Of a DNA stretch of 64,000 bases, positions 4,083 through 44,598 are shown in pieces. The position numbers and the translations under genes are program-made. How positions within the stretch are numbered: the stretch's first letter is position 1; each line of letters begins with the position of its first letter. Below the pieces are notes generated by a model. It made no database searches. It was not told where the DNA came from and saw only the letters and a program-made list of their open reading frames with translations. Origin of the DNA: an uncultured Gammaproteobacteria bacterium (lineage in GTDB: Bacteria; Patescibacteriota; Microgenomatia; UBA8517); NCBI GenBank assembly GCA_964357925.1, contig CAYHMW010000002.1, forward strand, positions 23,367-87,366, written 5' to 3'.

Positions 4083-4251
4083 CATGTTTCTGACGTCACT
4101 TCTATTTATCACAATATGCAACGCACTAGTAGTTGCACTACTGCTTGTAACAGAACATCCAGGATATGCAATTAAATTTTCAAATTATTTATTTTTGGCA
4201 CTCACGATTCATCTACTTGTCACCCTGTTAAAACATGCGAAAAAGTCATAG
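4083..4251 (+). CDS. possible small 2-TM membrane protein (56 aa), doubtful
   Basis: Internal ATG of the 3943..4251 ORF. It lies in the divergent intergenic region after a TATAAT-like box, and its hydrophobic sequence is MFLTSLLFITICNALVVALLLV... Confidence 0.2.
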
Positions 4252-6730
4252 TCTGTTTCTCTTATTTTTCTTTATACTGCCATTAATTCTTGTTTTTAAG
4301 TCACTATTTCTTCCCGGTCCGCTTGCGTGGGGGGACGCACCACATTTTTATCCAAACGAACTTAAGGAGCTCTTGAACTTTCCATCTGCATGGACTGAAA
4401 GAGGACATCTCCTTGGGGGCGTCAATCAACTTGTTTGGTTGTCACCACTAATGTTTATATATGGTTTATTAGGAACTTTGTTCGGCAACGACCTAGTAAT
4501 CAGACTTATGTTTTACTTTCCGTCGCTTATTCTCTCCGCCACTGGAGCTAGACATCTCGCCAGACATTATAAATTATCAGCAAACGGACAGTTTTTTGCT
4601 TCCTTAGTCTATATCCTCAACACCTATTTCATTACATTAATAGATGGTGGACAAGCAGGACTCGCTCTGGCATACGGCATATTCCCGTGGACGATACTTC
4701 ATTTAATAAAATTACTAGATAATCCAAGAACCACAACTTTTTCAAAAGCATTACTATCTTTGTCGTTACTCACACTGGCAGATCCAAGAATAGCATTAAT
4801 AGCCGACCTTTTTATTTTCATTAGCTACATTAGGAGCCGCAACTTATTTCTGTTTTTTGTCTTAAATGCAATAAACGTTGCCCTTCACGCCTACTGGCTT
4901 GTTCCTTTCCTTAGAATTGTTGGCAGCGCACCTACAGCAGGCGGATCCTACTTGCAATTGACATCCGTCCTTAACGGACTAACGCTTTATCAACCTCACT
5001 GGCCTAAAAATATATTTGGCAAAATTACATACCCAGCAATTCCAGGAGCCCTTCTCTTGTTGCTGCTCACGACTTCATTGCTCACCGCACGAACACGCAA
5101 AACACGAACAATTGGTATCCTATTTTTGCTATCAACTCTGCTTGTTAATGGCGAAACACTCCCACTCGGTTATTTCTACAGCTGGCTTATGAACAACATC
5201 CCGGGATCTGCCGCTTTCCGAGATTCTACAAAGTTTTTCTTCCCACTGACGCTTTTTGCAGGGCTCTTGTTGGGTTCACTCGCGGAGCAAACTAAAAACA
5301 AACTTCTACCAGGAATAATATATATGGTTATCTTGGGCAGTATTGCTCCGGCATTATTAGGTCAAATGAACTTCGTTCTTTCACGAAGAAGTCCATCGCC
5401 AGATTTTGAAAAACTGAATACTTATTTATCCAATGAAACAGGCTTCGGAAGGACAGCTTGGGTTCCCGAACAGCCTCCACTTGCTACACAAACCATAAAT
5501 AAACCAGCAACTAATGCCCGGGAGCTTGTAAATCTACGCCCACTAGGAAGACTCAATGCAGGTACGTTTGATCGATTCAATTATTTCCACAATGGAAAAT
5601 TCCTCGATTTCTACAGACTGTTTGGTATTAAGCATTTAGTGCTAAGCGGCGATCCCAGGGCGATTCAATTAAACAAAGAAGAGGAAAAACATTGGGAAGA
5701 TCTTTCTTTAAGAATTGCAACAAGTGCTGGGTTAATAAAAGAGGACACTAACACAAGCATTGGAGTATTTAGAGTTGATGAAACACTCCCACATATTTAT
5801 GGAGTTGAAAACGTGATTGCAGTTGTAGGGAGCGACGATATTTATGAGTCAGTGAGTCCCATTGGTCAGCCATTTGTTTTTTTCGAAGATGGAAAGTTGA
5901 ATCCAAAAAATCTTGATAATTATGATCAAGATTCAATAAAAATTCTATTTAACAACAAATCAGAGTTGGATCTAACAATGAGTTTTCTTCAGGAATATTA
6001 TTACGGGTCGCCGGAAGCAAAGGAATCAGGTTGGGCAGAGCATTCCGACTATCTTCAATATAAATATGAACTCTTAGTAAAAGGTCTGAACTATAACGAC
6101 TTTGATTATGGCCGTGGCATCGCGTTTTCAACAATGGAAGGCGAGAAAATACGATTCGATTTCAACGTAGCAAAAGAAGGTGATTATATTTTCGCAACTC
6201 GCTCTCTGAACAATAATTCACTTGAGTGGAATGTTAGGGGGTTGAGTCTTGAGCGTGGGGTCCACACGGAAACAATAATAAGTAGTGGAAAACTGAGTTT
6301 ACTAAACGTAGTCGCCTTGATTCCAAAAGAAGAATTTATTGAAGCGGAAGCTAAAGCCAAATCACTAGTATCTAAGTTTGAAGTTATCGAAAAAATAGAC
6401 TTATCCGTCGTCCCTAAACAAATTCTTAAAGTAGACTTTTCAAACAAAAGCCCTGTCAAATACGAAATAGAATCATCAGTCGGAGGTCGTTGGCTAATTT
6501 TTTCTGATTCATACCACAAAAACTGGAAGCTCAGGACAAAAAACAACTCAATCGACTCTTTGCCAATTTACTCTACCATAAATGGTTTCTACCTTGGCGG
6601 TAGTCAAGAAGACGTGGAAATCGTCTTCGCCCCCCAGAAGTATTTCATGGAAGGCATATATGTTAGCCTTACTGTTCTTAGTATCCTTGTTATCTCGTTT
6701 GCCATAGCCTACTCTAAGAAAAAGAAGTGA
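4235..6730 (+). CDS. large membrane protein, YfhO/GT-C-like N-terminal TM domain (about 370 aa) plus extracytoplasmic domain of about 460 aa
   Basis: The 831-aa protein has multiple TM helices followed by a large soluble domain. It is the first gene of the long + strand glycan operon. Confidence 0.5.
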   Translation: MRKSHSLFLLFFFILPLILVFKSLFLPGPLAWGDAPHFYPNELKELLNFPSAWTERGHLLGGVNQLVWLSPLMFIYGLLGTLFGNDLVIRLMFYFPSLILSATGARHLARHYKLSANGQFFASLVYILNTYFITLIDGGQAGLALAYGIFPWTILHLIKLLDNPRTTTFSKALLSLSLLTLADPRIALIADLFIFISYIRSRNLFLFFVLNAINVALHAYWLVPFLRIVGSAPTAGGSYLQLTSVLNGLTLYQPHWPKNIFGKITYPAIPGALLLLLLTTSLLTARTRKTRTIGILFLLSTLLVNGETLPLGYFYSWLMNNIPGSAAFRDSTKFFFPLTLFAGLLLGSLAEQTKNKLLPGIIYMVILGSIAPALLGQMNFVLSRRSPSPDFEKLNTYLSNETGFGRTAWVPEQPPLATQTINKPATNARELVNLRPLGRLNAGTFDRFNYFHNGKFLDFYRLFGIKHLVLSGDPRAIQLNKEEEKHWEDLSLRIATSAGLIKEDTNTSIGVFRVDETLPHIYGVENVIAVVGSDDIYESVSPIGQPFVFFEDGKLNPKNLDNYDQDSIKILFNNKSELDLTMSFLQEYYYGSPEAKESGWAEHSDYLQYKYELLVKGLNYNDFDYGRGIAFSTMEGEKIRFDFNVAKEGDYIFATRSLNNNSLEWNVRGLSLERGVHTETIISSGKLSLLNVVALIPKEEFIEAEAKAKSLVSKFEVIEKIDLSVVPKQILKVDFSNKSPVKYEIESSVGGRWLIFSDSYHKNWKLRTKNNSIDSLPIYSTINGFYLGGSQEDVEIVFAPQKYFMEGIYVSLTVLSILVISFAIAYSKKKK

Positions 6731-8016
6731 ACAAATACATAAGCGACTTGAAAGATTTAGTTTTTTCAAAAACGGCCAAGGACGCCACAGTGGTATTTAT
6801 TGGAAATGCCACCTCGTCACTCCTGGCCATTGTATTTACAATATTTGCAGCACGCTCGCTGGGGCCTGAAAATTGGGGAATGGTCGCAGCCGTCACAAGC
6901 CTCGTTGCCATTCTTGTGGCTTTCGGAGAACTAGGTCTCGATGCCGGTCTTCTCAAGTTCGTCTCTAAATTGTGGAGAGAAAACAAATTCAAGGAGGCAA
7001 AAAGTATTTTTCAAACAGTATTCACAGTCCGACTGATGCTCGCAGCTACAATAATTGCAATTTTGTTTTTGGCTCCACAGGAAATATCAAAATTAGCTTT
7101 TAACTCAAAAGACACCTCGCTCGTATACTTTTCAGCCTTAGGTTTTCTTGCTGCTCTCATCTTTGATTATCAAATCGCCGCAACTCAATCTAAAGAACAC
7201 TGGATAGTTGCTGCCTTTCTGCTCACCTTAACAAACATAATTCGAATCCTCGGGTTGCTATTTTTAATCTGGACAGATTCTGTAAATTTAGCATCTGTAC
7301 TTAAAGTCTTCACAGGCAGCGGCTTCATATGTTTTCTTCTTTCTCTCTACTGGCATCAGACACCCTTGGGTTTTTCAAAAAACTGGCAAGAAATTCTTCG
7401 CCAGATAATACCGTTTTCAGGGTGGATGGGTCTCAATAAAATAGTAAGCGTCTTAAACGGGAGAATAGATGTTCTCTTGCTCTTGAGTCTCTCGAGCGCA
7501 TATAGCGCAGGAGTGTATGCTGCAGCGAACAGGCTGGCAATGGGTGTGCCAATCATAGTTGCCAGCTTCGCCACAGTTTTGGCACCAAAACTTGCAGGCT
7601 TCAATACAAAAGAAGAATTAGAAATATACTTCAAAAAAAGTCTAGGTCTAACACTCCTAATTTCCATCGGACTCTTATTCGGAGTCTTAGTCTCACCTTT
7701 CGTAATCAAGCTCTTCGGTCCAGAATACAAAGAGGCCGGCCCGATACTTCAACTACTTTTCATAAGCTATATTCCTTTTACACTCTCGACTCCAGCTGTT
7801 AATACTCTAATCTACTCATTCAAGCGACCACAAATCATTGCGATAATGACAATTATTCAATCGCCGCTTGTGATAGCGGCCAACTACTTTCTGATTCCCA
7901 GATTCGATATCTACGCCCCAGTAGTTATTATTGCGGCTACAAACACGATCTCTATGTTTGTCAGTTATTATTTTGTCTGGCGCTACTTATCAAAAAAAGA
8001 AGAAGGTCTTCAATGA
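6727..8016 (+). CDS. polysaccharide biosynthesis protein / oligosaccharide flippase (Wzx-like, MOP superfamily)
   Basis: The 429-aa protein has about 12-14 TM helices. Its N-terminal pattern (VVFIGNATSSLLAIVFTIFAARSLGPENWGMVAAVTSLV) is typical of PF01943/PF13440 flippases. Its start overlaps the upstream stop. Confidence 0.7.
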   Translation: MNKYISDLKDLVFSKTAKDATVVFIGNATSSLLAIVFTIFAARSLGPENWGMVAAVTSLVAILVAFGELGLDAGLLKFVSKLWRENKFKEAKSIFQTVFTVRLMLAATIIAILFLAPQEISKLAFNSKDTSLVYFSALGFLAALIFDYQIAATQSKEHWIVAAFLLTLTNIIRILGLLFLIWTDSVNLASVLKVFTGSGFICFLLSLYWHQTPLGFSKNWQEILRQIIPFSGWMGLNKIVSVLNGRIDVLLLLSLSSAYSAGVYAAANRLAMGVPIIVASFATVLAPKLAGFNTKEELEIYFKKSLGLTLLISIGLLFGVLVSPFVIKLFGPEYKEAGPILQLLFISYIPFTLSTPAVNTLIYSFKRPQIIAIMTIIQSPLVIAANYFLIPRFDIYAPVVIIAATNTISMFVSYYFVWRYLSKKEEGLQ

Positions 8017-8855
8017 AAATATCAGCTCATGTTTTAGTCAAAAATGAAGCCAGATTTATTTGGTACTCAGTTATGTCCGTCATTAATCATGTCGACAAAG
8101 TTAGATTAGTCGACACCGGGAGTACCGATGGGACTCTCGAAATAATTGAAGAACTCCGAAAAACACCAGTCGGTAAAGAAAAAATAATCTTCCAGAAATT
8201 TAAACTCGATCCTTTTAACGAAGAGGTGGCAAGGCAGCAAATGCTAGATGCAACAATTGAAGATTGGTTTATTGTTATCGATGGCGACGAAATTTGGTGG
8301 GAAGACAGTATTAAAGCAGTAACCCAAATGATACATGGGAAGGGCAATCAATATGAATCAATTGTCGTCCCAACTATTAATGTGGTTGGCGACATGTTCC
8401 ACTACCAAGAAGAAAAAGCTGGTCTATATAAACTCGCCGGCAGAAAAGGTCATTATAATTTAAGAGCAATAAATAGGTCGATCCCAGGTTTAAAGTCCCT
8501 TGGAGAGCATGGGATCTGGGGCTGGGCAGATGAGGATAATAAAATGATTCAGGACCGCGACCCGGGAAAAATATTATTTGTCGACGCACCGTACTTGCAC
8601 ACCACCTTTCTACAGCGTGCAGGTAATGTCACAGACGACAAAAAAGTCCTAAAGCGCGCGCAAAAGCTCAAACACGAAATAGGAATTCCATTTCCAGGTG
8701 ATTATTATTATCCGGAAGTTTTTTTCAGAGAAAAGCCAAATATTGTTAAAGATGTTTGGCAGAACATGCCAGGTTCCTTCTATTTGCAATCGATAATCGA
8801 AACCCCCTTAAGGAAATTAAAACGCAGATTGCTCCCTCCAAAAGTTGGTTATTGA
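8013..8855 (+). CDS. GT-A fold glycosyltransferase (GT2-like)
   Basis: N-terminal HVLVKNEARFI...VDTGSTDGT is typical of GT2-like enzymes. It has a DGDE acidic motif. It forms an ATGA junction with the flippase gene. Confidence 0.5.
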   Translation: MKISAHVLVKNEARFIWYSVMSVINHVDKVRLVDTGSTDGTLEIIEELRKTPVGKEKIIFQKFKLDPFNEEVARQQMLDATIEDWFIVIDGDEIWWEDSIKAVTQMIHGKGNQYESIVVPTINVVGDMFHYQEEKAGLYKLAGRKGHYNLRAINRSIPGLKSLGEHGIWGWADEDNKMIQDRDPGKILFVDAPYLHTTFLQRAGNVTDDKKVLKRAQKLKHEIGIPFPGDYYYPEVFFREKPNIVKDVWQNMPGSFYLQSIIETPLRKLKRRLLPPKVGY

Positions 8856-9472
8856 AGATCAACTCCTAGAAGTTCTGACAAGTCGAGACGAAGTTGAGCT
8901 GCATCTCGGAATAGGAGCCCTTTAATCCCCAGTTTTTCACAAGCAACTAAGTTTTCCTCCCTGTCATCGACGAATATTGTCTCTCTTACAGTAGTTTTCA
9001 TATTTTGTATCGCTGTTAGGTAAATCCTAGGATCAGGTTTTGCTACCCCTACTGTGCATGAGCAATATACGCCATTGAATATATCTTTCAATCCGAACTT
9101 TCGCATCTTAATATCCACCCAATCCACGGCAGTATTAGTAATAACCCCAATCTTAAAGCCTTTCTCCCGAAGCTTAGCTGCGATAAGCAGGACATCTTTG
9201 TTCCCCCGAACTCCATCTTCGTAATACTTCTCGAGAGTCCCTCGGATTGGTTTTTTAGGTGCAAGCTCGTATACCTCGTCCCAAAAGGTGCTTGCAAGTT
9301 CAGCCCCGATAGAGAGTTTTGGCCAGTGTTTGTTGTATAGCTCATGAAGTTTTTCAGCAGTAAGCCCGGATTCCTCCACGACTTTCCTATATTCATCCTC
9401 CCACCGATCAGAGTCAGAGCCGATGACTCCTCCGAAATCAAAAATTATAGTTTTGTAATTACTCACGTCCAT
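8849..9472 (-). CDS. HAD-superfamily hydrolase (subfamily IA-like phosphatase/phosphomutase)
   Basis: Motif I IIFDFGGVI, motif III K, motif IV FVDDREENL. Confidence 0.8.
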   Translation of the reverse strand: MDVSNYKTIIFDFGGVIGSDSDRWEDEYRKVVEESGLTAEKLHELYNKHWPKLSIGAELASTFWDEVYELAPKKPIRGTLEKYYEDGVRGNKDVLLIAAKLREKGFKIGVITNTAVDWVDIKMRKFGLKDIFNGVYCSCTVGVAKPDPRIYLTAIQNMKTTVRETIFVDDREENLVACEKLGIKGLLFRDAAQLRLDLSELLGVDLQ

Positions 9473-9510
9473 GGCTTCAACCTCCTTACATATTAAAGTA
9501 AAATATAGTC

Positions 9511-10335
9511 ATGATTCAATGCAAACTCTGCGGCAGTACTAGTTTCAAGCCCATTTACGTCGACCCTGCAATCGAAAAATGTGCCAAATGCGAGCTGGTA
9601 AGAACTAAAAAAACACCACATCCTAATTACAGAAGCTACCACCGGGACGTTGACTACGAGAATAATGAAAAGCTTTTTAGAAACATATTTCTAAAGCGTT
9701 ACAAATTGATTGCTGGATTTACAAACAAGAAAGGCAAAGTACTTGAAATCGGCTGCTCCACAGGTGTTTTCCTTGAAATCTTCAAGCAAAATAGCTGGGA
9801 TGTAGTGGGAATAGAACCTTCCCAATCTGGAAAAGTAGCTGAAGCAAAAGGCATAAAGGTTATAAAAAACTCATTCGAGAAGGTAAAGTTCAAGAGTAAA
9901 TTCGACCTAATAATCTTAAATCACACCCTAGAACATGTCGAAGACCCAGTGTTTGTACTCACGAAGGCACAAAAACTTCTTAGTGAAGACGGTCTCCTGT
10001 TTGTTGATGTTCCAAATTTCGACAGTTTTAGTAGTAGACTCTGGGGGAAAAGATGGAAATACCTACTTCCAGAAGAACACGTTCACCATTTTACTTCGTG
10101 GTCGCTTATAAAAGCTCTTGAAGGATCAGGTCTCAAACCAATTTATATCAACACCTGGACTGGTGTATTTGATGTAGATAACCCATTACAAAAAATAGTC
10201 ACACAAATAACTTCAGGCAAACCATATTTATATAAAAGTTTCATTTTAGATATGCTCAATCTCCCCTTCGATATTCTAAGTACAAAAATATTCCACCTAG
10301 GTACAAATTTAGTAGTAATAGCTAAAAAACCATGA
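9511..10335 (+). CDS. class I SAM-dependent methyltransferase with N-terminal 4-Cys zinc ribbon (sugar C- or O-methyltransferase-like)
   Basis: CKLCGS...CAKCE zinc ribbon; SAM motif I VLEIGCSTGVF; acidic motif II. Confidence 0.8.
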   Translation: MIQCKLCGSTSFKPIYVDPAIEKCAKCELVRTKKTPHPNYRSYHRDVDYENNEKLFRNIFLKRYKLIAGFTNKKGKVLEIGCSTGVFLEIFKQNSWDVVGIEPSQSGKVAEAKGIKVIKNSFEKVKFKSKFDLIILNHTLEHVEDPVFVLTKAQKLLSEDGLLFVDVPNFDSFSSRLWGKRWKYLLPEEHVHHFTSWSLIKALEGSGLKPIYINTWTGVFDVDNPLQKIVTQITSGKPYLYKSFILDMLNLPFDILSTKIFHLGTNLVVIAKKP

Positions 10336-11675
10336 TACCGGGTCTTCTAATCATTTTTCACCTGCTGATACTAGGCAATATTCAGTTCACTGCCTGGCCA
10401 GAAATACTGAGCTTCCCATATCTTAAAAACAACGGCTTTGACTTGTACCGCGATTTTGTTCATGCCTACCCACCCTTACTTACAATTATCTTGGCAACGC
10501 TTTATAAGTACCTTGGCTACAGAATGATTGTCATCAAAGGATTCACCTGGGTATTAATTCTCATTAACGATGTTCTTATCTTCAAAATTACTCAGAAGCT
10601 AACCAGTTCAAAGTACATAGCCTTGCTCGCACTGCTTTTTTATGTCTTAACTCAACCTTTTCTTGAGGGCAACATGCTTTGGTTCGATACTGCACTCACG
10701 ACACCACTTTTAGCCACGCTTTACACTTTGCTATTCCCAAATCTTTTGGTCTTGTCAGGCTATTTTATGGCCTTGGCACTCCTTACAAAACAAACTGCAA
10801 TTCTATACCTCCCAATTTTTAGCTTGTTATTGTTAGTGAGTTCCAAAAAAATAGGTAATTTCGCCCGTTTTCTTGCAGCACCAATTATTTTATGTGGAGT
10901 TTTGGCCCTCAAGCTGTTTTCAGCCAGCAATCTTGAACACTTTCTCAACTGGACATTAATTTACCCCTCAAAATACTGGACCAAATTTCCCGGCTATGTA
11001 GACCTAGACCTCACCATAAAAGACCTTAGCACTCTGGCTGTCCTATTCGCACCAACATTTTCATTGCTTGTCTACTCCAAAACTAGGCAGAAGTATTTAC
11101 TGATAACTTTATTTACAATTGCTGGAATTGTTGGCGTTTATCCACGGTTCTCCTATTTTCACCTTCAGCCCGCAATTGCCTTCGCCGCAATCGGCTCAAG
11201 CCTGTCATTTATAAACCTTAAGAAATATAAATATTTACCAATAATTTATTCTCTCACTCTTATTTTTTTAATAGCGATTCCAGCTCTAAAACAAAATTTC
11301 GGCAAACCGACGCGTTTTTATGGCAATGAGGAAACGCTTTTTACAAGTGCTTTAAAATCACAAGTGAGCAGAGGTGATACGATATACCTCCTCGGCCCAC
11401 ACTCAGGCTACTATGTCTTCACGGAGACCCTTCCCCCAAAACCCTGGCTAGATAACTTCGGTTGGTATTGGGAAATGTCAGGAGAGGCAGAGAAGGCTTT
11501 AGCTAAATGGTCAGAAACTCCACCGTCAGCGATTGTTGTCGATACAAAAAGCCCTGGTGACTGGTATGACCTTGGAGCATATCAGTCTGGGACATTGGTC
11601 AATTGGATAGAGGAAAACTATACTAAAGGCGAAGAGCTAGACGATAAAAGTACATTATGGACAAAAAACAACTGA
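10332..11675 (+). CDS. polytopic membrane protein, putative GT-C glycosyltransferase
   Basis: The 447-aa protein has about 10 TM helices and a soluble C-terminal domain of about 110 aa. It lies within the glycosyltransferase operon. Confidence 0.45.
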   Translation: MIPGLLIIFHLLILGNIQFTAWPEILSFPYLKNNGFDLYRDFVHAYPPLLTIILATLYKYLGYRMIVIKGFTWVLILINDVLIFKITQKLTSSKYIALLALLFYVLTQPFLEGNMLWFDTALTTPLLATLYTLLFPNLLVLSGYFMALALLTKQTAILYLPIFSLLLLVSSKKIGNFARFLAAPIILCGVLALKLFSASNLEHFLNWTLIYPSKYWTKFPGYVDLDLTIKDLSTLAVLFAPTFSLLVYSKTRQKYLLITLFTIAGIVGVYPRFSYFHLQPAIAFAAIGSSLSFINLKKYKYLPIIYSLTLIFLIAIPALKQNFGKPTRFYGNEETLFTSALKSQVSRGDTIYLLGPHSGYYVFTETLPPKPWLDNFGWYWEMSGEAEKALAKWSETPPSAIVVDTKSPGDWYDLGAYQSGTLVNWIEENYTKGEELDDKSTLWTKNN

Positions 11676-12688
11676 AAATTGCATTTCTAAATATCAGCCA
11701 AGGACAAATAGAGCGAGGGAGTGAAGTTTTTGTTACAGAACTTGCAAAACGTTTAGGTAAAAACCATAAAGTAGAAATACTATTTGGAGACGAACTTCCA
11801 GGCTGGAGGACTCCGTTACTTTGGAGATTCTTTCTAGACTTCCACAGTATTTCAATCCTTTTATTTACACTAAAGCAAATCCCAAAACTTCTTTTTAATC
11901 GTTATGACATTGTAATTCCTCTTAATGGCGGCTGGCAGTCAATGATAGTTAGGACTATTACTTGGCTTTACAGAGGAAAGATGATCATCTCTGGTCAGTC
12001 TGGTTTTGGGTGGGACGATAGAATTAACCTTTGGTGTTTACCGGATGTTTTTGTAACGCTCTCTAAAAAAGGCATTAGATGGTCGAAGATGACCAATCCG
12101 CTCATAAGGGTCGAACACATTCCAAACGGAGTAGACATAAGCCAATTCCAACCTGGCAAGTCAAGGCTTGAGTTTAAACTCGCACAACCAATCATACTCT
12201 GTGTCTCAGCGCTCGAGAAAACAAAAAGAATTGGCTTAACAATTAAAGCCGTATCAAAACTAAAAAAAGGCAGCTTGTTAGTGGTTGGCAAGGGTTCTGA
12301 AAAAGTGATTCTAACTAGCCTAGGTAAAGAGATGCTTGGTAGTAGATTTCACCTAACCTCATTCTCTCACGAAAAAATGCCAGAAGTTTACCGGGCTGCA
12401 GATGTTTTCACTCTATCATCACATAAATCTGAAGCTTTCGGTATTGTTTATGTTGAAGCCCTCGCAAGTGGTCTTCCAGTGGTCGGAACAAATGATGAAT
12501 TAAGGGAAGAAATAATAGGGGATGCAGGCATTCTGGTTGACCCAACAGATACAGATGCTTACGCCATAGCATTGCAAAAAGCCCTAGACACCAATTGGGG
12601 GAATAAACCAAGGAACCAAGCACAAAAATTCTCCTGGGACAAAATAGCAAGGCAATATGAAGAATTATTTGTAGAACTTACACAATGA
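11657..12688 (+). CDS. glycosyltransferase family 4 (GT-B)
   Basis: C-terminal GT4 signature EAFGIVYVEALASGLPVVGTND (E-x7-E). Confidence 0.85.
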   Translation: MDKKQLKIAFLNISQGQIERGSEVFVTELAKRLGKNHKVEILFGDELPGWRTPLLWRFFLDFHSISILLFTLKQIPKLLFNRYDIVIPLNGGWQSMIVRTITWLYRGKMIISGQSGFGWDDRINLWCLPDVFVTLSKKGIRWSKMTNPLIRVEHIPNGVDISQFQPGKSRLEFKLAQPIILCVSALEKTKRIGLTIKAVSKLKKGSLLVVGKGSEKVILTSLGKEMLGSRFHLTSFSHEKMPEVYRAADVFTLSSHKSEAFGIVYVEALASGLPVVGTNDELREEIIGDAGILVDPTDTDAYAIALQKALDTNWGNKPRNQAQKFSWDKIARQYEELFVELTQ

Positions 12689-13521
12689 AAATCTCTACAA
12701 TAATCCCAGCCTATAATGAAGAAAAGGTTATTTTGAATTGCCTGAAATCTCTTGATGATCAGTCAGCAAAAAATTTTGAAGTAATCGTCGTTGATGACGG
12801 TTCAAGTGATTCCACACTATCTCTCCTTGGGGCATTTAAAACTCAAAAATACGAATATAAATTCCTAAACACCGACCACAAAGGGCCAGCCCTTGCTCGA
12901 AATCTCGGAGCCAAAAATTCTAAAGGGCAAATCTTGGTTTTTGTTGACTCAGATATGACTTTCAGTAAAGATTTCATCAAAAACCTTGTGGCACCAATAA
13001 TTAGCCACAAATCCAAAGGAACATTCTCAAAAGATGAATTTGTGGCCAACTGGCATAATGTTTGGGCACGCTGCTGGAACTATAATCAAAATCTCTCTGG
13101 AAATAAGCGCCACACTGACGACTATCCCGATACACAAAAAGTTTTTCGAGCAATCCTCAAATCTGAATTCGATGGAGTAGGAGGGTTCAATAAAGGTGGT
13201 TACACTGATGATTATACTTTAAGTGAAAAACTTGGTTACAAGGCAGAAGAAGCATCAGATGCAATCTTTTATCACAATAATCCTGAAAATCTTGTAGAAG
13301 TTTTCCACCAAGCCAAATGGACTGCAAAAAGAGAATATAGGTTCGGGATATTTGGAATTATTGTAAATCTAGTTAGGCTAACTATGTTTTATTTGCCAAC
13401 AGCTGTTTGGAAAACTGCTAAATTCAAATCACCGGCATTTGCCATCTTTAAATTAGTTTATAATTTAGGTTCAATTGTGGGAATTTTAGAGTACAAAATA
13501 AAAGGTTTAGGGATAAAATGA
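12685..13521 (+). CDS. GT2 polyprenyl-phosphate sugar synthase (Dpm1/GtrB/ArnC-like)
   Basis: N-terminal IIPAYNEEKVI...VIVVDDGSSDST and a DSD motif. C-terminal hydrophobic helices are typical of GtrB/Dpm1-type membrane-anchored GT2 enzymes. Confidence 0.7.
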   Translation: MKISTIIPAYNEEKVILNCLKSLDDQSAKNFEVIVVDDGSSDSTLSLLGAFKTQKYEYKFLNTDHKGPALARNLGAKNSKGQILVFVDSDMTFSKDFIKNLVAPIISHKSKGTFSKDEFVANWHNVWARCWNYNQNLSGNKRHTDDYPDTQKVFRAILKSEFDGVGGFNKGGYTDDYTLSEKLGYKAEEASDAIFYHNNPENLVEVFHQAKWTAKREYRFGIFGIIVNLVRLTMFYLPTAVWKTAKFKSPAFAIFKLVYNLGSIVGILEYKIKGLGIK

Positions 13522-14975
13522 ACAAAAATAACAACATCTACTATATTTTGACTCTGGCGTTTGTGTTACGCCTGCTTTCTTTGAACCAATCATTTTGGCT
13601 GGACGAAGCCACGAGTGCGGGAGTTGCACGCGATTTATCTTTATACCAAATACTCAACGATTTCCTTCCAGGTGACTTTCACCCAGCTGGCTATTACCTT
13701 TTACTCAAAGGCTGGGGGGCAGTATTTGGCTTTAGTACTGTTGCACTTCGACTGTCGTCAGTGTGTGTGGGCGTTGCAACAGTTTTCGTAGTGTATCTGA
13801 TCGGCAAAACTTTGAAAAATGAAACACTTGGTACACTTTCAGCTCTATTGTTTGCCACCGCTCCACTCCACATCTACTACTCGCAGGAAGTAAGAATGTA
13901 CTCACTTTCAACACTTTTAGCTAGTTTAACTATCTATTTCTATCTTCGAATACAAAAAAGGCCCAATAAAACTGATTGGCTATGGTTCTCTACCTTCTTA
14001 GCTTCAAATCTGTTAATAGATTATCTCCCGGTACTCATAATAATTCCAATCTGGGCGGCCACATTATTTGGCTTTAGTAAACGTAAAGCCATCTGGAAAA
14101 GAAACTTTTTACTATCGCATGTTCCAGCCCTACTTGCCTTTGGTGTATTATGGCCCATCCTAAAGACACAGTTGGCTGCTGGACTTTCTGTCAAGATAAG
14201 CTCTCCTGCATGGTGGAGTCTTCTAGGAACAACAAATTTCAAAAATATTGCACTAATTCCAGTAAAATTTCTAATTGGAAGAATCAGCTTTGAGAATGAT
14301 TACGTTTATGTTCTTATGGCAGTTTCTGCCTTAGCCCTCTATGTATTCGCATTCAAAGAGACAGTAAAAAAAATAAACAACTACAAAATTCTTTATTTAT
14401 GGGCTACATTGCCAGTAATAGCGGGTGTGTTTATTGGCTTATTTATTCCAGTGCTAAGCTACTTCAGGTTCCTTTTTGTACTCCCAGTAGTATATTTGCT
14501 GGCAGCCTTAGGCCTCACAGAAATTAAAGAAAAGTACTTTGTTCCGCTTTTGTTTTCATTGTTATTACTAAATATGACGATGAGCTACAGATATCTTTCT
14601 ACCCCAAAGTTTCTAAGGGAAGATTGGCGAGGACTAGCCACCTATATAAGTGAAGATTCGGTTTTTATGCCATCGCCGCTAGTTATTTTCCCAGCCAACT
14701 CACAAATGGAAGCCTTAAAATTCTACAACAGCGATGGGAGGGTCCAAATTTCGGGGCCAGATATTGAAATCGGTTCTCAAGAAAGACTGTATTTGATCCG
14801 CTATGTAGTTGCTATATTTGATCCAGAGGATAAAGTAAGAACCAAAATAGAATCAAACAACTATCAAAAAGTAGAGGAAAAGGATTTCAACGGAATCACA
14901 GTTTGGAAGTATGAAAAATTACCGGAAATTCCACCCGAGCTCGAATTAAACTCAGAAAAGGTAATTAAGCTTTAA
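13518..14975 (+). CDS. GT-C glycosyltransferase, ArnT/PMT family (GT83/GT39-like)
   Basis: The 485-aa polytopic protein has an acidic DE motif in loop 1 (FWLDEA). It directly follows the GtrB-like GT2 through an ATGA junction. Confidence 0.7.
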   Translation: MNKNNNIYYILTLAFVLRLLSLNQSFWLDEATSAGVARDLSLYQILNDFLPGDFHPAGYYLLLKGWGAVFGFSTVALRLSSVCVGVATVFVVYLIGKTLKNETLGTLSALLFATAPLHIYYSQEVRMYSLSTLLASLTIYFYLRIQKRPNKTDWLWFSTFLASNLLIDYLPVLIIIPIWAATLFGFSKRKAIWKRNFLLSHVPALLAFGVLWPILKTQLAAGLSVKISSPAWWSLLGTTNFKNIALIPVKFLIGRISFENDYVYVLMAVSALALYVFAFKETVKKINNYKILYLWATLPVIAGVFIGLFIPVLSYFRFLFVLPVVYLLAALGLTEIKEKYFVPLLFSLLLLNMTMSYRYLSTPKFLREDWRGLATYISEDSVFMPSPLVIFPANSQMEALKFYNSDGRVQISGPDIEIGSQERLYLIRYVVAIFDPEDKVRTKIESNNYQKVEEKDFNGITVWKYEKLPEIPPELELNSEKVIKL

Positions 14976-16052
14976 ATGAAAATTGCCATAGATATTTCTC
15001 AAGTTGTTTACGGTACAGGTGTCTCTGTATATACTGAGAATTTAGTACGTTCGTTGCTGGCAATCGACGATGAAAACCAATACTTACTTTATGGTGGTTC
15101 ACTACGAAAAAAAAGTAAATTGGTTGAGTTCACAGAAAATCTGACCGGTAATTTCGACTGTAAACTCTACAACTTCCCTCCTACTTTGACAGACATAATG
15201 TGGAACAGACTTCATATAATCAATCTTGAACAGATTATCGGCCAGTTTGATGTTGTGCATACCTCAGACTGGGCCGAGCCACCATCAAAAATACCAAAAG
15301 TGACGACAATTCATGATCTTGCCCCTATTAATTATCCAGGAGAAACTCACCCTAAAGTTGTTTCTGCACATAAAAAGCGTCTAAAACTTGTTAAAGCTGA
15401 GTCAGCACATATTATTGTTCCTTCCCTGTCTGTGAAGAAAGAACTCATCGACTACGGCTTTCATAGCAGTAAAATAGCCGTGATTCCTGAATCACAAAAC
15501 CCAAACATTAAAAAAGTCACTAATACTGAGATTACACGCGTGAAAAATAAATTTAATATAGTGGGGGACTATATTGTCGGTTGGGGAACAAGTAAAAGAA
15601 AAAACTACGAACGAAGTTTCGAGGCGTTCAAAAAAGTCAAAACCCATTTAAACCTAAGCACATTCGTGCTATTGGGTGTTGCGTCGCACAATACCAGCGA
15701 TAACATGATAGCGACTGGGTATGTAAGTGATGCTGATGTTTCTGCCTTATACTCAGGGGCCTCTGCACTCGCCTATCCGTCTATTACTGAAGGCTTCGGC
15801 ATTCCAATTTTAGATGCTTTTGCTTGCGACTGCCCGGTAGTAACATCAAGAGAGAGTAGCATGCCCGAGGTAGCAGGTAACGCGGCAATTCTTGTTGACC
15901 CATTTAGTATTAAATCGATTGCCGACGGGCTAGTGAGTGCCGTCAAACAAAGAAATAAACTAATGCAGAAAAGTCATTCACAACTCAAAAAATTTTCATG
16001 GGAGAAAACTGCCAGAGAAACTCTTAAAGTTTACAAACTAGCAGCCAACTAG
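14976..16052 (+). CDS. glycosyltransferase family 4
   Basis: EGFGIPILDAFACDCPVVTS...E signature. Confidence 0.85.
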   Translation: MKIAIDISQVVYGTGVSVYTENLVRSLLAIDDENQYLLYGGSLRKKSKLVEFTENLTGNFDCKLYNFPPTLTDIMWNRLHIINLEQIIGQFDVVHTSDWAEPPSKIPKVTTIHDLAPINYPGETHPKVVSAHKKRLKLVKAESAHIIVPSLSVKKELIDYGFHSSKIAVIPESQNPNIKKVTNTEITRVKNKFNIVGDYIVGWGTSKRKNYERSFEAFKKVKTHLNLSTFVLLGVASHNTSDNMIATGYVSDADVSALYSGASALAYPSITEGFGIPILDAFACDCPVVTSRESSMPEVAGNAAILVDPFSIKSIADGLVSAVKQRNKLMQKSHSQLKKFSWEKTARETLKVYKLAAN

Positions 16053-16076
16053 AATTAATAATTCAAAAACAATGAT

Positions 16077-17204
16077 ATGATAATCGGCATTGATGGTAAC
16101 GAGGCAAATATAAAGGAAAGGGTGGGAGTCAACACTTACGCCTTCGAAATCCTGTGGGGACTCTATAAACTACAGGATGAGGTTCCAAATCCAAAGCACA
16201 GATTTATAATATACTTGAAAAACGAACCACTTGGTGACCTACCCAAAGCCAGTAGCTTTTGGGAATATAAAGTTTTAGGTCCACGAAAATTCTGGGTGGC
16301 AACACGATTAACACCTCACCTTTACACGACTAAGTTAAAAACGGACATTTTTTTTACTCCAAGTCACTACTTACCGCCGTTTTGTCCGGTTCCGGCGGCC
16401 TGCTCGATTATGGACATAGGTTTTCTCGAATTCTCGGAACAATTTAACCCAAAAGATTATTGGCAGTTAAGGCTTTGGACTGCCAGGTCAGTTAGAGTCG
16501 CAAAAAAAATCTTCTCAATTTCTGAAACCACCAAAAAAGAAATTGTACGACACTATAGTTTTGCCCGTACTAAAGTAGTTGTTACGCCACTTGGGTATGT
16601 AAAAGGTAGGTTTAATCTCCAAAGAAACAAAAATGATGTGCGACGACTACAAATAAAACTCAACTTACCAAAAAACTATATCTTATTTTTAGGTACATTG
16701 AAACCAAGCAAAAATTTAGAAGGCTTAATAGAAGCATGGGCATTAATCGAGCAAAAATTTCCTGAGACGCAACTGGTAATTGCTGGAAAAAAAGGCTGGC
16801 TCTTCAACCGAATTTTCCAGACAGTAAAAAGTTTAAACATTGAGAAGAGAGTAGTCTTCACTGGCTTTATCCCGGAAGCAGATAAGGAGTCATTAATCAA
16901 AGGTGCAAAGGCTTTTGTGCTTCCATCCCTTTGGGAGGGCTTCGGCTTGGATGTAGTATCTGCAATGGCTAGTGGAATTCCCGTAATAGTGTCCGATCGT
17001 GGTAGTTTGCCAGAGGTGGTAGGAACAGCTGGAATAATTATAGATCCAACAAACTATCAAGAAATTGGGAGTGCAATAGAAAAAGTACTAACAATGAATA
17101 AGACAAGCTATAATATAGTGGCAGGCAACGGCGTAGCTCAAGCAAAAAAATTTTCCTGGAGTAAAGCAGCCAAAATTACCCTTAAATCGTTTGAAAAGAT
17201 GTAA
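16077..17204 (+). CDS. glycosyltransferase family 4
   Basis: [30 protein letters not shown] signature. Confidence 0.85.
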
Positions 17205-18354: not shown

Positions 18355-19277
18355 GCAAAATTCCAAGGCTCTCAATTATCATTGTGAGCTACAACACAAA
18401 AATTCTTCTTGAAGCATGCCTGGGGTCCGTAGTTAAATACACCAAAGGTATAGACTACGAAATAATAGTTGTCGACAATGCTTCAAGCGACAACAGCCTT
18501 GACGAACTATCAAAATTTGAAATTAAAAATTTCAAATTAAAACTTATTCACAACCGTTCTAATTTAGGCTTCGCTGTGGCAAACAACCAAGGCGCGAAAA
18601 TCGCTAAAGGACAATATATATTACTGTTAAACTCAGACACAGAGCTTACTGCAAATATTCTCCCTGAAATGTTGGACTGGATGGATGAACACAAAAAAAC
18701 GGGAATTGTCACATGCATGCTCAAATATCCGGATGCACGTGTTCAGGCAACAGGAGGTTATTTCCCAACTCTCCTTAGAGTGATTTCCTGGATGACAATA
18801 CAAGACATTCCTGGCGTTGATAAGCTGATTAAGCCATTCCACCCAATGAAAGACAAATCATGGAGAAAAGCAGAAGATTTTTACTCCAGAGAAAAAGAGC
18901 TAGATTGGGTCACAGGAGCATTTTTATTAATGAGTAAAAAAACCTTCGAGGATGTTGGTCCAATTGACGAAGATTATTTCATGTATACAGAGGAAGTCGA
19001 TTATTGTTACCGAGCAAAAGCATTAGGCTGGCAAGTTTGGTACCTCCCAAGATGGAGTATTATCCATGTGGGAGGAGCAAGCAGTACAACAGAAAATGCA
19101 GTCTTGAAGGAGTTTGAGGGCATTAAACTTTTTTACAAGAAGCACTACCCAACATGGCAATACCCCCTGCTAAAGTTTTTTTTAAAACTAGGTGCATTAA
19201 TTAGAATTCCGATTTTAGGTATACTTGAAGGGCCAAAAGCAGCCAAAACCTATGCTAAAGCATTTATTAGAGCGTAA
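18351..19277 (+). CDS. glycosyltransferase family 2
   Basis: LSIIIVSYNTKILL...IVVDNASSD, DTE/DxD motif LLLNSDTE. Confidence 0.85.
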   Translation: MSKIPRLSIIIVSYNTKILLEACLGSVVKYTKGIDYEIIVVDNASSDNSLDELSKFEIKNFKLKLIHNRSNLGFAVANNQGAKIAKGQYILLLNSDTELTANILPEMLDWMDEHKKTGIVTCMLKYPDARVQATGGYFPTLLRVISWMTIQDIPGVDKLIKPFHPMKDKSWRKAEDFYSREKELDWVTGAFLLMSKKTFEDVGPIDEDYFMYTEEVDYCYRAKALGWQVWYLPRWSIIHVGGASSTTENAVLKEFEGIKLFYKKHYPTWQYPLLKFFLKLGALIRIPILGILEGPKAAKTYAKAFIRA

Positions 19278-20661
19278 CACAACCATAATCAAACTTAGTG
19301 AGTATTCAGATCGGCTACTCAAATATTTAGTAGCCGCCGTTCTTATTGCGGTCCCGCTTTTCCCAAAATTCCCATTTCTAAATGTTCCAGGTACACAAGT
19401 TTCAATTAGGCTCGAAGACTTTCTAATTCTAGCGACACTCATAGTATACTCATTTACAATCCTACCATCAGTTTTTACCCTCTTCCAAAGCAGAATCTTC
19501 CGAGCTGTAATGCTTTTCCTATTAGTTGGCCTTGTCTCTGTCTACTCAGGAATCTTTCTAACCAAAACTGTTATTTTCCATATTGGAATACTCCACTGGG
19601 CAAGACGTGTCGAATATCTCTCGTGTCTATTAATTGGAGCCCAATCAGTCAAAAATAGAGAAAACCTGAAATTCTATTCAAAGCTCTTAGTTATTGTCGT
19701 CACACTCACATTTCTTTATGGAGTAGGGCAGAAACATCTCAATTGGCCAGTCATAACCACTCAAAATTCGGAATATTCGAAGGGCATCGCGCTCCGCTAT
19801 ACAGAAGATTCACATTTAATATCAACATTTGCGGGTCACTACGACCTAGCTACGTACATTATCCTCACAACACCCATTTTTTATGCACTTTTGCTTGGTG
19901 GTAAGGCTGTTGCAAATGACTTGGGGTTGTCAAAACATTACTGGCTCGGGAATGGAATTCTTTTTTCTGTGATTACAATGTCGCTCTGGCTCTTGGTCAA
20001 CGCCGCCTCAAGAATCTCCATGGTTTCCTATCTCGGCAGTGTAACACTTGTTTTACTTGTCATGAAGAAATACAAATTCATCCCTCTAGTCATCATCTTC
20101 ACGCTGATCTTTACCTCAATGTCTAGTAATCTGATTGATCGGTATACTAACATTCTTGAGGTTGCTACCAAAAAAGTATTTTCATTCGTGCCGACAGCTT
20201 ATGCGCAAGAAATTGTAGATAGACCGATTAGATCAGGCTCTTCACTTCTTGAAAAAGTTAATCCAATCTCTGTTTTCGAAGACAGATCAACTTCGATCAG
20301 GCTTAATATTGAATGGCCAAGAGCTTTGAGAGCCCTCAATAAAAATCCAATATTAGGGACAGGATTTTCGTCAATCACTCTTGCAACGGACAATGGATAT
20401 CTTCGCCTCCTAGGTGAGGTTGGTATCCTTGGGTTTGTTTCTTTTTGTCTGTTGCTTTTTCGGATATTGAGGTACCTCTTTTCACTAATTTCATTTAAAC
20501 ACCAAAGTTTGGCAAGTGTTTATACACTTGGGCTATTGGCTGCTATTCCAGGTATTATGCTTAATATGGTTTTCATCGACGTTCTAGAAGCATCAAAGTT
20601 CGCTATCAGCTTTTGGTTATTAATAGGTTTTGCGGTTGGTTTATCCAATAATGAGAAATAA
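19225..20661 (+). CDS. O-antigen ligase/polymerase-like membrane protein (Wzy_C family)
   Basis: It has about 10 TM helices and a large extracytoplasmic loop. It carries an ILGTGFSSITLATDNGYLRLLGEVGILG motif resembling the Wzy_C GxGxG...HNxYL...ExG block. The start is uncertain: 19252 is an alternative. Confidence 0.55.
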   Translation: MKGQKQPKPMLKHLLERNTTIIKLSEYSDRLLKYLVAAVLIAVPLFPKFPFLNVPGTQVSIRLEDFLILATLIVYSFTILPSVFTLFQSRIFRAVMLFLLVGLVSVYSGIFLTKTVIFHIGILHWARRVEYLSCLLIGAQSVKNRENLKFYSKLLVIVVTLTFLYGVGQKHLNWPVITTQNSEYSKGIALRYTEDSHLISTFAGHYDLATYIILTTPIFYALLLGGKAVANDLGLSKHYWLGNGILFSVITMSLWLLVNAASRISMVSYLGSVTLVLLVMKKYKFIPLVIIFTLIFTSMSSNLIDRYTNILEVATKKVFSFVPTAYAQEIVDRPIRSGSSLLEKVNPISVFEDRSTSIRLNIEWPRALRALNKNPILGTGFSSITLATDNGYLRLLGEVGILGFVSFCLLLFRILRYLFSLISFKHQSLASVYTLGLLAAIPGIMLNMVFIDVLEASKFAISFWLLIGFAVGLSNNEK

Positions 20662-22123
20662 AATTGATCGAGTAATAAAAAGTAACAAATTTGAGTATTT
20701 TTTACTTGCTTTAATACTGATTTTAAGCTTCGCGTTGAGGCTTTATAAAATCCAAAACCCCGTTGCCGACTGGCATTCTTGGAGGCAGGCAGATACAGCC
20801 TCTGTCAGTAGAATCTATTTAGATGAAGGAATTGATCTCCTACGTCCCAAATATCACGACATCTCAAGTATCCAGACAGGCTATTTCAATCCAGAAGGTT
20901 ACCGTTTCGTAGAATTTCCTATGTTTAATCTAATTCATGTTGTCCTATTTAAAACATATGGGCGATTTACATTTGAAGTCTGGGGCAGATTGACTGCAGT
21001 CATTGGAGCACTATTTACAGTCCTTGCTGTTTATGGGATCGGTAGGCGATTATGGGGGAAAGCACACGGTCTTCTCGCTGCATTTTTTTACGCAATTATT
21101 CCTTTTAACATCTATTTTACAAGGGTAATATTGCCGGATCCTTTAGCAGTCACATTTGCAACCATTTCAGTTTGGCTTTTCCTTGTGTATTTCCAAGAAA
21201 GCAAAACCAAGTATGCTATTGCATCTTCAATTTTCTTTTCACTGGCAATGTTAACAAAGCCCCATTCAATCTTCTTTGGCCTACCAATTGCTTATATGGC
21301 GATTGTGAAACACGGCTTTCGTGGGATATTTAAGCAAAAAATGCTTCTTCTTTGTATTGACATAGCACTTGTCCCATTTTTCCTGTGGCGAACTTGGATA
21401 AACAATTTTCTTGAAGGCATTCCCCATTTTCTTTGGTCGTTTAATGGTGACGAAATTCGCTTTCGTCCTTCCTTCTGGCGTTGGATTTATTCAGAACGCT
21501 TGGGAAACCTTATTCTAGGAGTGTGGGGACTTATCCCTTTATCATTCGGCGCTTTGGTAGTAGATGAAAAACACAAACTCAAATACTTTGTTCAATCACT
21601 CCTTCTTGGCATGTTCCTCTACACAACTATTTTTGCCACTGCCAGTGTTCGTCACGACTATTATCAAGTATTCGTTATCCCGGCAGTTGCGCTAACACTT
21701 GCGCAAGGCACTGTTTATTTATGGAACAAAAAGGAGTACAACATTTGGCTCAGACGCTCTCTTGTCATTTTTTCAATTGGAATGATAATTAATTCAGGAG
21801 CAGACAAAATAAAGGGTTTTTACAATATTAACCATTATGAAATCGTTGAAGCAGGTATGGCTGCCGACTCGCTTCTCCCTAAAGACGCACTTGTCATTGC
21901 ACCCTATAATGGTGATACAGCATTTCTTTACCAAACTAAACGTTCAGGCTGGCCAATTGTCGACACAGGCATCGAGAAAATGATTAAAAAGGGGGCTAGT
22001 TATTATATTTCAGTAAACAAAGGAGACAGCGACAGCGTAACATTTAAAAGAATGTTCAAGACAGTTGTCGAAGCCGATCGCTACATTATCCTTGATCTTA
22101 CTTCACCGATTTCTGAAAAATGA
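20651..22123 (+). CDS. polytopic membrane protein, putative GT-C glycosyltransferase (ArnT-like)
   Basis: About 12 TM helices and a C-terminal soluble domain. The ATG at 20651 overlaps the upstream stop (ATGAGAAATAA). The ORF track starts at 20630. Confidence 0.5.
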   Translation: MRNKIDRVIKSNKFEYFLLALILILSFALRLYKIQNPVADWHSWRQADTASVSRIYLDEGIDLLRPKYHDISSIQTGYFNPEGYRFVEFPMFNLIHVVLFKTYGRFTFEVWGRLTAVIGALFTVLAVYGIGRRLWGKAHGLLAAFFYAIIPFNIYFTRVILPDPLAVTFATISVWLFLVYFQESKTKYAIASSIFFSLAMLTKPHSIFFGLPIAYMAIVKHGFRGIFKQKMLLLCIDIALVPFFLWRTWINNFLEGIPHFLWSFNGDEIRFRPSFWRWIYSERLGNLILGVWGLIPLSFGALVVDEKHKLKYFVQSLLLGMFLYTTIFATASVRHDYYQVFVIPAVALTLAQGTVYLWNKKEYNIWLRRSLVIFSIGMIINSGADKIKGFYNINHYEIVEAGMAADSLLPKDALVIAPYNGDTAFLYQTKRSGWPIVDTGIEKMIKKGASYYISVNKGDSDSVTFKRMFKTVVEADRYIILDLTSPISEK

Positions 22124-37693: not shown

Positions 37694-37720
37694 GTACATG
37701 TTTGCTATAATCCAAAGTTC

Positions 37721-39453: not shown

Positions 39454-39463
39454 GCTAAAAATA

Positions 39464-42482: not shown

Positions 42483-42486
42483 ATTC

Positions 42487-43518: not shown

Positions 43519-43536
43519 GCTATAATTATTAAAGAG

Positions 43537-44595: not shown

Positions 44596-44598
44596 CTA

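Follow-up and report, generated by a model that had tools for sequence, protein, structure and literature searches.

What does the glycosyltransferase encoded directly upstream of a GT-C enzyme do in a Microgenomatia bacterium, and does it make the lipid-linked sugar that its neighbour would use? The question is raised by a 64,000-nucleotide stretch of contig CAYHMW010000002.1 (hereafter the window), in which an open reading frame (ORF) of 278 aa (12685..13521, forward strand), with the family GT2 N-terminus MKISTIIPAYNEE...VVDDGSSDST, is followed on the same strand by an ORF of 485 aa (13518..14975), a GT-C fold glycosyltransferase in which FWLDEA occupies residues 26-31 (nucleotides 13593..13610). 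The initial annotation described both ORFs, their lengths and the ATGA overlap between them correctly, and read the pair as a Dpm1/GtrB/ArnC-type synthase coupled to an ArnT/PMT-like GT-C in an O-mannosylation-like system. Our analysis leads to a different answer. With a confidence somewhat above even, we propose that the GT2 and the GT-C are consecutive, mechanistically separate enzymes of a Wzx/Wzy-type envelope glycan pathway, and that the donor synthase serving the GT-C is encoded elsewhere.

The GT2 matches Pfam PF00535 (106 bits), and its position within this large family was examined by comparing a profile of 46 family sequences with reference proteins of E. coli K-12 in hhalign. ArnC (104 columns, prob 98.3) and GtrB/YfdH (103 columns, prob 97.8) aligned only with residues 1-108 and 1-103 of the target, respectively, whereas PgaC aligned over 196 columns covering residues 1-209 (prob 99.3). 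BcsA aligned in the N-terminal part only (119 columns, residues 3-124, prob 85.9), so that PgaC is the informative synthase reference. In the PgaC alignment, the DDG (37-39) and DSD (88-90) motifs are in register, Y-T-D-D-Y-T-L-S stands opposite I-T-E-D-I-D-I-S and N-P-E-N-L..Q opposite m-P-E-T-L..Q, and Q209 lies opposite the Gln that opens the QRLRW of PgaC. A phmmer comparison of PgaC with members of the GT2 family covered PgaC residues 76-297 and placed Q-(A/S)-R-W opposite QRLRW with a one-residue gap. Sequence matches in the PDB, from single-sequence as well as profile searches and including DPMS, GtrB and ArnC, were confined to residues 1-~110; in a fold ranking the best match was the minimal synthase-like PcManGT, with DPMS, GtrB and ArnC at ranks 17-24. 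Among NCBIfam models, the best match was EpsD, a model of a Wzx/Wzy-pathway exopolysaccharide glycosyltransferase (84 bits, residues 3-227). The ArnC model gave 28.7 bits over model positions 7-113 of 316 and the AglJ model 26.6 bits, each over the N-terminal half only, and the PpgS model was unmatched. In these comparisons the GT2 resembles the synthase-like branch of its family, PgaC-like in sequence and minimal, PcManGT-like, in fold.

Conserved motifs and the predicted structure bear on the same assignment. GtrB, ArnC and DPMS, members of the polyprenyl-phosphate glycosyltransferase (Pren-P GT) family, carry an extended DXD motif, DADLQ(D/N/H), in which the Gln ligates the metal (PMC12690121, PMC5526996); further structural hallmarks are two amphipathic juxtamembrane helices, two transmembrane (TM) helices and a tetramer with a C-terminal beta-hairpin (PMC12690121). 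The extended motif does not occur in the GT2, which reads FVDSDMTF at residues 86-93 (family consensus FVD[AS]DMTF), and its AlphaFold model (pLDDT 94.2) contains a single interface-type helix (203-214) followed by a hairpin of two helices (221-247 and 251-273), with no terminal beta-hairpin found. According to the PfDPMS structure study, the phosphate of the acceptor, dolichyl phosphate, requires no catalytic base (PMC5526996), though a later study of ArnC proposes the first Asp of the DXD motif in that role (PMC12690121); in neither case is a dedicated base of the TED type described for the Pren-P GT family. The GT2 carries a motif of this type, T174-D175-D176, which would provide the general base because it aligns with the TED motif of PgaC, and in TarS, TarP, SpsA, PcManGT and K4CP the Asp at the position of D176 serves as general base (PMC12595478). 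Residues invariant across the family are D37, D38, D88, D90, D175, D176, W212, K215, R216 and K256, and the pattern [Q/H]-A-[K/R]-W on helix 203-214 aligns to QRLRW with a one-residue gap, a non-canonical spacing. Judged by sequence, the GT2 is probably not of the Dpm1/GtrB/ArnC family to which it had been assigned, and a role as donor synthase is therefore unlikely.

The C-terminal helices on which that earlier assignment partly relied are present in the AlphaFold model, with borderline hydropathy (Kyte-Doolittle 19-residue means of ~1.6 for segments 220-238 and 250-268). Within the hairpin, the polar residues R231, K243, K256 (invariant), Y259, D/N260 and E269 are conserved, and this element may act as a membrane anchor or as a lipid-acceptor site. 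The GT2 has two C-terminal helices only and no N-terminal TM helix, hence no multi-helix translocation channel, and therefore resembles the minimal, non-channel form represented by PcManGT.

The names of homologues place the window in a Woesebacterium (Microgenomates), and the distribution of recognizable donor synthases was followed in related genomes. A scan with the GT2 family profile, using one genome per GTDB species, retrieved 236 relatives, and the best 80 loci (L001-L080) were analysed; those with informative titles are from Woese-, Blackburn-, Davies- and Gottesmanbacteria or from Microgenomates and Patescibacteria given no further name. In some of these loci, separate genes encode short GT2s in which a QDADLEY or an IDGDGQNNP motif is present. 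Such GT2s from L005, L035 and L047, taken as positive controls, matched the PpgS (75-175 bits), AglJ (113-135 bits) and ArnC (61-88 bits) models over the whole domain, those of L035 and L047 being AglJ/ArnC-like. L005 has an insertion at 12316..16578, inside the cluster between the GT-C and the next GT4. It carries genes for a DUF2304 membrane protein, for a Pren-P GT2 resembling PpgS (175 bits over the full length) and for a GtrII/PMT_2 GT-C, together with an AbiEii toxin-like gene, and it looks like a canonical module of donor synthase and GT-C. The partner proteins GacJ and Rv3632 belong to the DUF2304 family. On these profile scores, the genuine Pren-P GTs of the lineage are genes separate from the target GT2.

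Gene order in the same 80 loci, determined by tblastn of all window proteins, showed that the whole cluster is syntenic: an unassigned protein on the reverse strand, another on the forward strand, Wzx, a first GT2 (GT2a), a methyltransferase, a GT-C-like protein, a GT4, the target GT2, the target GT-C, two GT4s, an acetyltransferase, an unassigned protein, a further GT2 (GT2b), Wzy, a GT-C and a GT4. The GT-C lies directly 3' of the GT2 in 65 of the 76 loci with room for it (0.86); adjacency at the other junctions is 0.70-1.00, the exception being GT2a to methyltransferase (0.48), where the methyltransferase is often absent. Among the 59 loci with placeable starts, the GT2 and GT-C overlap by 4 nt in 30 and by another length in 17, are 0-30 nt apart in 10 and further apart in two. 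Overlaps of 4 nt also occur at 10 of the 20 junctions of the target operon, from 6727 to 30792. An insertion separates the two genes in eight loci, and in at least three of these (L002, L023, L073) it is another GT-C-like gene, as judged by its N-terminal motif; in L007 and L026 a DUF6056 protein or another protein of PMT_2 type takes the place of the GT-C, which is absent in L070. In total, the GT-C is displaced or replaced and the GT2 retained in 11 of the 76 loci. Since all cluster junctions are similarly conserved and 4-nt overlaps are the operon rule, adjacency is not specific evidence of coupling and was rejected as such: it is real, and it reflects cluster-wide synteny.

Several features of individual loci were recorded in the course of this comparison. 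In L070, one stop-free frame (5660..7744) joins a GT-C-like paralogue (~440 aa) to the GT2, from which the first 25-28 residues, and with them the IIPxYNE motif, are missing; a deletion/fusion, a pseudogene and an assembly artefact are all conceivable explanations. Variable ORFs of ~400-600 aa stand 5' of the GT2 in L008, L009, L011, L017, L020, L021, L023, L031, L036, L047, L058, L069 and L078. Eight inserts were read (L008, L011, L017, L036 and L078 upstream; L002, L023 and L073 between the genes), and all look like GT-C-like membrane proteins because of a motif near the N-terminus, R-x-Y-N...(F/W)-D-(E/S) in type; a Pfam scan of the L008 insert and of the L026 replacement gave sub-threshold PMT_2 matches. 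Apparently, GT-C paralogues come and go at this locus. In L033, L045 and L055, at ~7170..9950 between the GT4 and the target GT2, there are an NAD-dependent epimerase-like gene (by eye), a 388-aa methyltransferase-GT2 fusion with a YDADRT motif (Pfam) and an opposite-strand methyltransferase-like gene (by eye). Many records of metagenome-assembled genomes (MAGs) with this Microgenomates-type cluster are titled 'uncultured Gammaproteobacteria bacterium' (for example L006, L008, L012, L013 and L018-L020); they are binchicken and SRP co-assembly bins with cluster proteins at 50-57% identity, and this title is probably either a placeholder or taxonomically wrong.

Several points weigh against treating the GT2 and GT-C as mechanistically separate. 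Neither a DPM1/PpgS-like synthase (phmmer with ArnC and GtrB, no full-domain match) nor a GtrA/ArnE/ArnF-like flippase (phmmer) was found in the 64-kb window, so that of the three-component system of synthase, flippase and GT-C only the GT-C is present there. The Q-x-K-W motif of the GT2 falls one residue short of the canonical QxxRW. The membrane hairpin is strongly conserved together with its basic residues, and in most genomes the GT-C immediately follows the GT2, with the 4-nt overlap retained at half of these junctions; both observations would fit a direct functional link too. Finally, PcManGT is reported to be dolichyl-phosphate dependent, in which case a polyprenyl phosphate would be a possible substrate for a GT2 of the synthase-like branch.

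Apart from the length of the motif, these points would be consistent with the GT2 being a polyprenyl-phosphate sugar synthase, possibly for mannose supplied through the ManC encoded in the same array, whose product is flipped to become the donor for the adjoining GT-C, after the pattern of ArnC-ArnT, GtrB-GtrC or Ppm1-Pmt; the hydrophobic hairpin, with basic residues that are invariant and are predicted to lie at the membrane interface, and the lack of any other candidate synthase found in the window, would suit such a couple. We nevertheless regard it as unlikely. The alignment with ArnC and GtrB stops within the first 108 residues and PDB sequence matches end near 110, the DADLQ motif is missing, and the model is without the two juxtamembrane helices and the C-terminal beta-hairpin of the Pren-P GTs. 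The GT2 also combines an invariant TDD general-base motif with a QxKW acceptor motif, whereas a phosphate nucleophile would require no base, the later ArnC proposal notwithstanding. The real Pren-P GTs of the lineage are encoded by genes of their own and reach 61-175 bits over their full length, compared with 28.7 bits for the target; adjacency is at the cluster background, and the GT2 stays where the GT-C has been displaced or replaced. A non-DPM1 polyprenyl-phosphate sugar synthase from the PgaC/PcManGT branch, with undecaprenyl phosphate (Und-P) bound by the hairpin and the cluster of Lys and Arg residues and the product feeding a coupled GT-C, appears less likely again; if true, it would represent a new route to lipid-linked donors in ultra-small bacteria of the Candidate Phyla Radiation (CPR). 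That the GT2 is instead a processive synthase-like enzyme, assembling on a lipid carrier a homo-oligomer or polymer for the GT-C to transfer, ligate or decorate outside the membrane, is very unlikely: its D, D, D, Q(x)RW motif set would fit, but two C-terminal helices are insufficient for a translocation channel, the alignment with BcsA is N-terminal only, and Wzx/Wzy machinery is already present in the cluster.

The assignment of the second gene to the ArnT/PMT kind was borne out. The GT-C matches Pfam PF13231 PMT_2 over residues 55-211 (47.9 bits, cut-off 26.1) and has no Pfam match to YfhO. With the C-terminal helices of the GT2 present as well, neither of the two findings named in the initial annotation as refuting its reading was made; where the reading fails is the catalytic-domain family of the GT2. 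Foldseek comparison of its AlphaFold2 model (pLDDT 92.7) with the PDB placed ArnT on top (5ezm, E 3e-7; 5f15, E 6e-7; TM-score 0.57-0.59), and the matches that followed were all GT-Cs: ALG12, STT3/PglB, AglB, DPY19, Pmt4, ALG9 and Emb. In the model, TM1 is helix 3-19 and D29-E30 lies at the start of the first-loop helix 28-39. Compared with E. coli ArnT in hhalign, the GT-C family gave a marginal result (E 0.009, 12% identity), and in this weak match D29-E30 stands opposite D31-E32 and PGDF opposite SGDW; the pair D29-E30 would be the catalytic acidic pair of the enzyme. Further residues invariant among 53 homologues are D53-F-H-P56, R78, Y120-Y-S-x-E124-x-R126, K250, R255, F316-R317 and E368, and the C-terminal alpha/beta domain is predicted to be extracytoplasmic. 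Two narrower identities did not hold. An ArnT equivalog was ruled out, as the NCBIfam ArnT model is unmatched (the best NCBIfam match is MnslTaseMT1671, 35 bits against a cut-off of 900), a PDB sequence search returned nothing at E <= 1, and the hhalign match is marginal; a GtrC-type identity was dismissed after a profile comparison with E. coli YfdI showed no relation. The GT-C is best filed as a PMT_2-family enzyme of the ArnT/PMT_2 kind, with no closer assignment.

The acceptor suggested by the initial annotation is a separate matter. By analogy with PMT or TMEM260, the GT-C might be a protein O-glycosyltransferase for secreted or surface proteins: it has a loop-1 Asp-Glu as in PMTs and a weak TMEM260-like match (16 bits), Pmt4 and DPY19 are among its Foldseek matches, and NCBI labels homologues 'family 39'. 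We give this reading as little credence as a processive GT2. The Pfam domains PF02366, MIR and PMT_4TMC are all unmatched in the GT-C, which is for that reason not a strict PMT, and a precomputed PF02366 match exists in a minority of its homologues. The best structural match is ArnT and not PMT, PMT matches extend over ~260 columns only, and the gene lies in a polysaccharide operon of conserved order together with two to five other GT-C-like proteins, a genomic context that argues against a protein acceptor. The ManC invoked as the source of GDP-mannose was identified correctly: its product matches PF00483 and TIGR01479 (290 bits, model positions 2-352 of 467), and the gene lies 11 kb 3' of the pair on the same strand, with the array unbroken between them. 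It adjoins the initiating phosphoglycosyl transferase (PGT) and stands among six GT4 genes, which it could equally well supply. Mannose specificity and a protein acceptor are both unsupported for the GT2/GT-C pair.

From the ORFs, their families and folds, the conserved motifs and the synteny, we infer the topology, the donors and acceptors and the order of steps of a pathway with separate enzymes as follows. The PGT encoded at 27499..28161 would prime Und-P, and GT4s and GT2s, the target GT2 included, would lengthen the undecaprenyl-diphosphate-linked glycan at the cytoplasmic face. The target GT2, a putative membrane-tethered, metal-dependent, inverting enzyme carrying the motifs D, DxD, T-D-D and Q-x-K/R-W, would use a nucleotide sugar and D176 as general base to glycosylate a sugar hydroxyl of the polyprenyl-diphosphate-linked intermediate, with the lipid-linked acceptor held at the membrane interface by W212 and the K215/R216/K256 cluster. 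Wzx (6727..8016) would then flip the product, and the Wzy_C protein (19225..20661) would polymerise or ligate it. On the outer face, the D29-E30 loop of the GT-C would attach to the glycan a single sugar taken from a polyprenyl-monophosphate sugar, and the other GT-Cs would likewise add residues outside from Pren-P sugars. Making the donor for the target GT-C would fall to a synthase of the DPM1/PpgS type whose gene lies elsewhere in the genome.

Table 1. Coordinates of the two glycosyltransferases, their motifs and neighbouring genes in the window.
Feature	Position	Strand	Remarks
GT2 glycosyltransferase, 278 aa	12685..13521	+	GT-A catalytic domain residues 1-~215, then C-terminal two-helix hairpin
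DDG nucleotide-binding motif D37, D38, G39	12793..12801	+	invariant in the GT2 family
DxD metal/donor motif D88-S-D90, context FVDSDMTF	12946..12954	+	without the Leu-Gln of DADLQ
T174-D175-D176	13204..13212	+	both Asp invariant; aligned with PgaC TED
Q209-A-K-W212	13309..13320	+	W212 invariant; version of QxxRW shorter by one residue
K215-R216	13327..13332	+	invariant; after the QAKW motif
C-terminal helical hairpin of GT2, residues 220-273	13342..13503	+	borderline hydrophobic
ATGA	13518..13521	+	GT2 stop codon overlaps GT-C start codon
GT-C fold glycosyltransferase, 485 aa	13518..14975	+	~12 membrane helices and C-terminal alpha/beta domain
D29-E30 of GT-C, first loop after TM1	13602..13607	+	invariant in 53/53 homologues
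C-terminal soluble alpha/beta domain of GT-C, residues ~370-470	14625..14927	+	from the GT-C model
TMEM260-like/PMT_2-like polytopic protein	789..2186	-	
Wzx-type flippase (Polysacc_synt)	6727..8016	+	
Probable third GT-C-like polytopic membrane protein	10332..11675	+	PMT_2 sub-threshold, 17 bits
Wzy_C-domain polymerase or ligase	19225..20661	+	
Second clear GT-C paralogue	20630..22123	+	PMT_2 62.7 bits, PMT 26.3 bits
ManC, GDP-mannose pyrophosphorylase without phosphomannose isomerase domain	26384..27502	+	PF00483 and ManC beta-helix
Small polyprenyl-phosphate phosphoglycosyl transferase (Bac_transf)	27499..28161	+	PF02397 202.6 bits, TIGR03025 247.6 bits

The pair lies in an almost gap-free array of genes extending from ~6727 to 30792 (Table 1), co-directional except for a HAD hydrolase on the opposite strand. 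The array opens with the Wzx flippase, a GT2, the HAD hydrolase, a methyltransferase, a polytopic protein weakly similar to PMT_2 and a GT4; the target GT2 and GT-C follow, then two GT4s, a hexapeptide acetyltransferase, an unassigned 166-aa protein and a GT2, and next the Wzy_C protein, the second clear GT-C, a GT4, a GT2, two GT4s and ManC. Its 3' end is formed by the small Bac_transf PGT, which likely initiates the pathway, followed by a DUF4012 protein and RecO. Altogether there are six GT4s and four GT2s in addition to Wzx, Wzy_C, the Bac_transf PGT, the acetyltransferase, the methyltransferase and ManC. A consensus scan found no intergenic terminator-like site in the array, and was uninformative in that counts of promoter- and terminator-like sites were at the level of shuffled sequence.

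Other proteins of the window were noted alongside. The three other GT-C-like proteins (789..2186 on the reverse strand, 10332..11675 and 20630..22123 on the forward strand) have 22-27% identity or undetectable similarity to the target GT-C, and each has its own acidic motif after TM1, such as VADWHSWRQAD or PWLEDWD. Two large polytopic proteins of 629 and 831 aa (2174..4063, reverse strand, and 4235..6730, forward strand) have 8-9 predicted TM segments and no Pfam match at E <= 1; many loci retain them at the cluster's 5' edge, and their N-terminal motifs, NRGNDLQEFFWP and AWGDAPHFYP, are GT-C/YfhO-like as judged by eye only. Directly 3' of the PGT, 28171..30246 encodes the DUF4012 protein, of 691 aa with one N-terminal TM segment. 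A complete-looking dcw cell-wall and division cluster (35975..50006), with a penicillin-binding protein, two Mur ligases, Ddl, MraY, FtsW, MurG, FtsA and FtsZ, lies ~5 kb 3' of the glycan operon.

Both the GT2 and the GT-C are known kinds of enzyme, and the pair is fairly ordinary, since the GT2 is probably not a lipid-sugar donor synthase. The interest lies more at the level of the whole locus, a lineage-wide, GT-C-rich envelope-glycan cluster. This Wzx/Wzy-type cluster comprises ~20 genes, with three to six GT-C-like proteins, and its order is kept across the Woese-, Blackburn-, Davies- and Gottesmanbacteria loci examined; conservation of gene order at such breadth is unusual for a Wzx/Wzy-type locus, and it points to a conserved, structurally important envelope glycopolymer that is partly built outside the membrane. 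A literature search on glycan clusters and GT-C enzymes of Microgenomates, Woesebacteria and Patescibacteria returned nothing relevant, and we know of nothing established experimentally about the surface glycans of Microgenomates. For annotation, the lesson is that a GT2 with C-terminal helices beside a GT-C is insufficient for a Dpm1/GtrB-type call, and that the family of the catalytic domain should be checked.

Among characterized enzymes, the best fold match of the GT2 is PcManGT of Pyrobaculum calidifontis (PDB 6YV7-6YV9), a membrane mannosyltransferase described as a 'minimal cellulose-synthase-like' GT2. PcManGT has three antiparallel TM helices (PMC10569066), whereas the target has two, and sequence similarity between them is confined to the N-terminal half. 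With synthases of the PgaC/NodC/BcsA type, the GT2 shares a whole catalytic domain in the case of PgaC and the pairing of TDD with TED and, across a one-residue gap, of Q-x-K/R-W with QRLRW, but not their multi-helix channel and N-terminal TM helices. With GtrB, ArnC, DPMS/Dpm1 and PpgS it has in common the nucleotide-binding half (residues 1-~108), predicted membrane association through C-terminal helices and a place 5' of a GT-C.

The GT-C shares with ArnT (GT83, the transferase that moves L-Ara4N from Und-P to lipid A) the PMT_2 match, the top rank in Foldseek, the D-E pair and a G-D-aromatic motif, whereas RYA and YFEKP, parts of the ArnT loop-1 signature, are absent from its alignment. 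The context differs as well, as the target GT-C lies in a Wzx/Wzy glycan cluster of a CPR bacterium, which is assumed to be without lipid A. The GtrA/GtrB/GtrC, PpgS/Rv3632/Rv3779 and GacI/GacJ/GacL modules resemble the locus in containing a GT-C that presumably needs a Pren-P sugar; they differ from it in that the GT2 adjoining the target GT-C belongs to another branch of the GT2 family.

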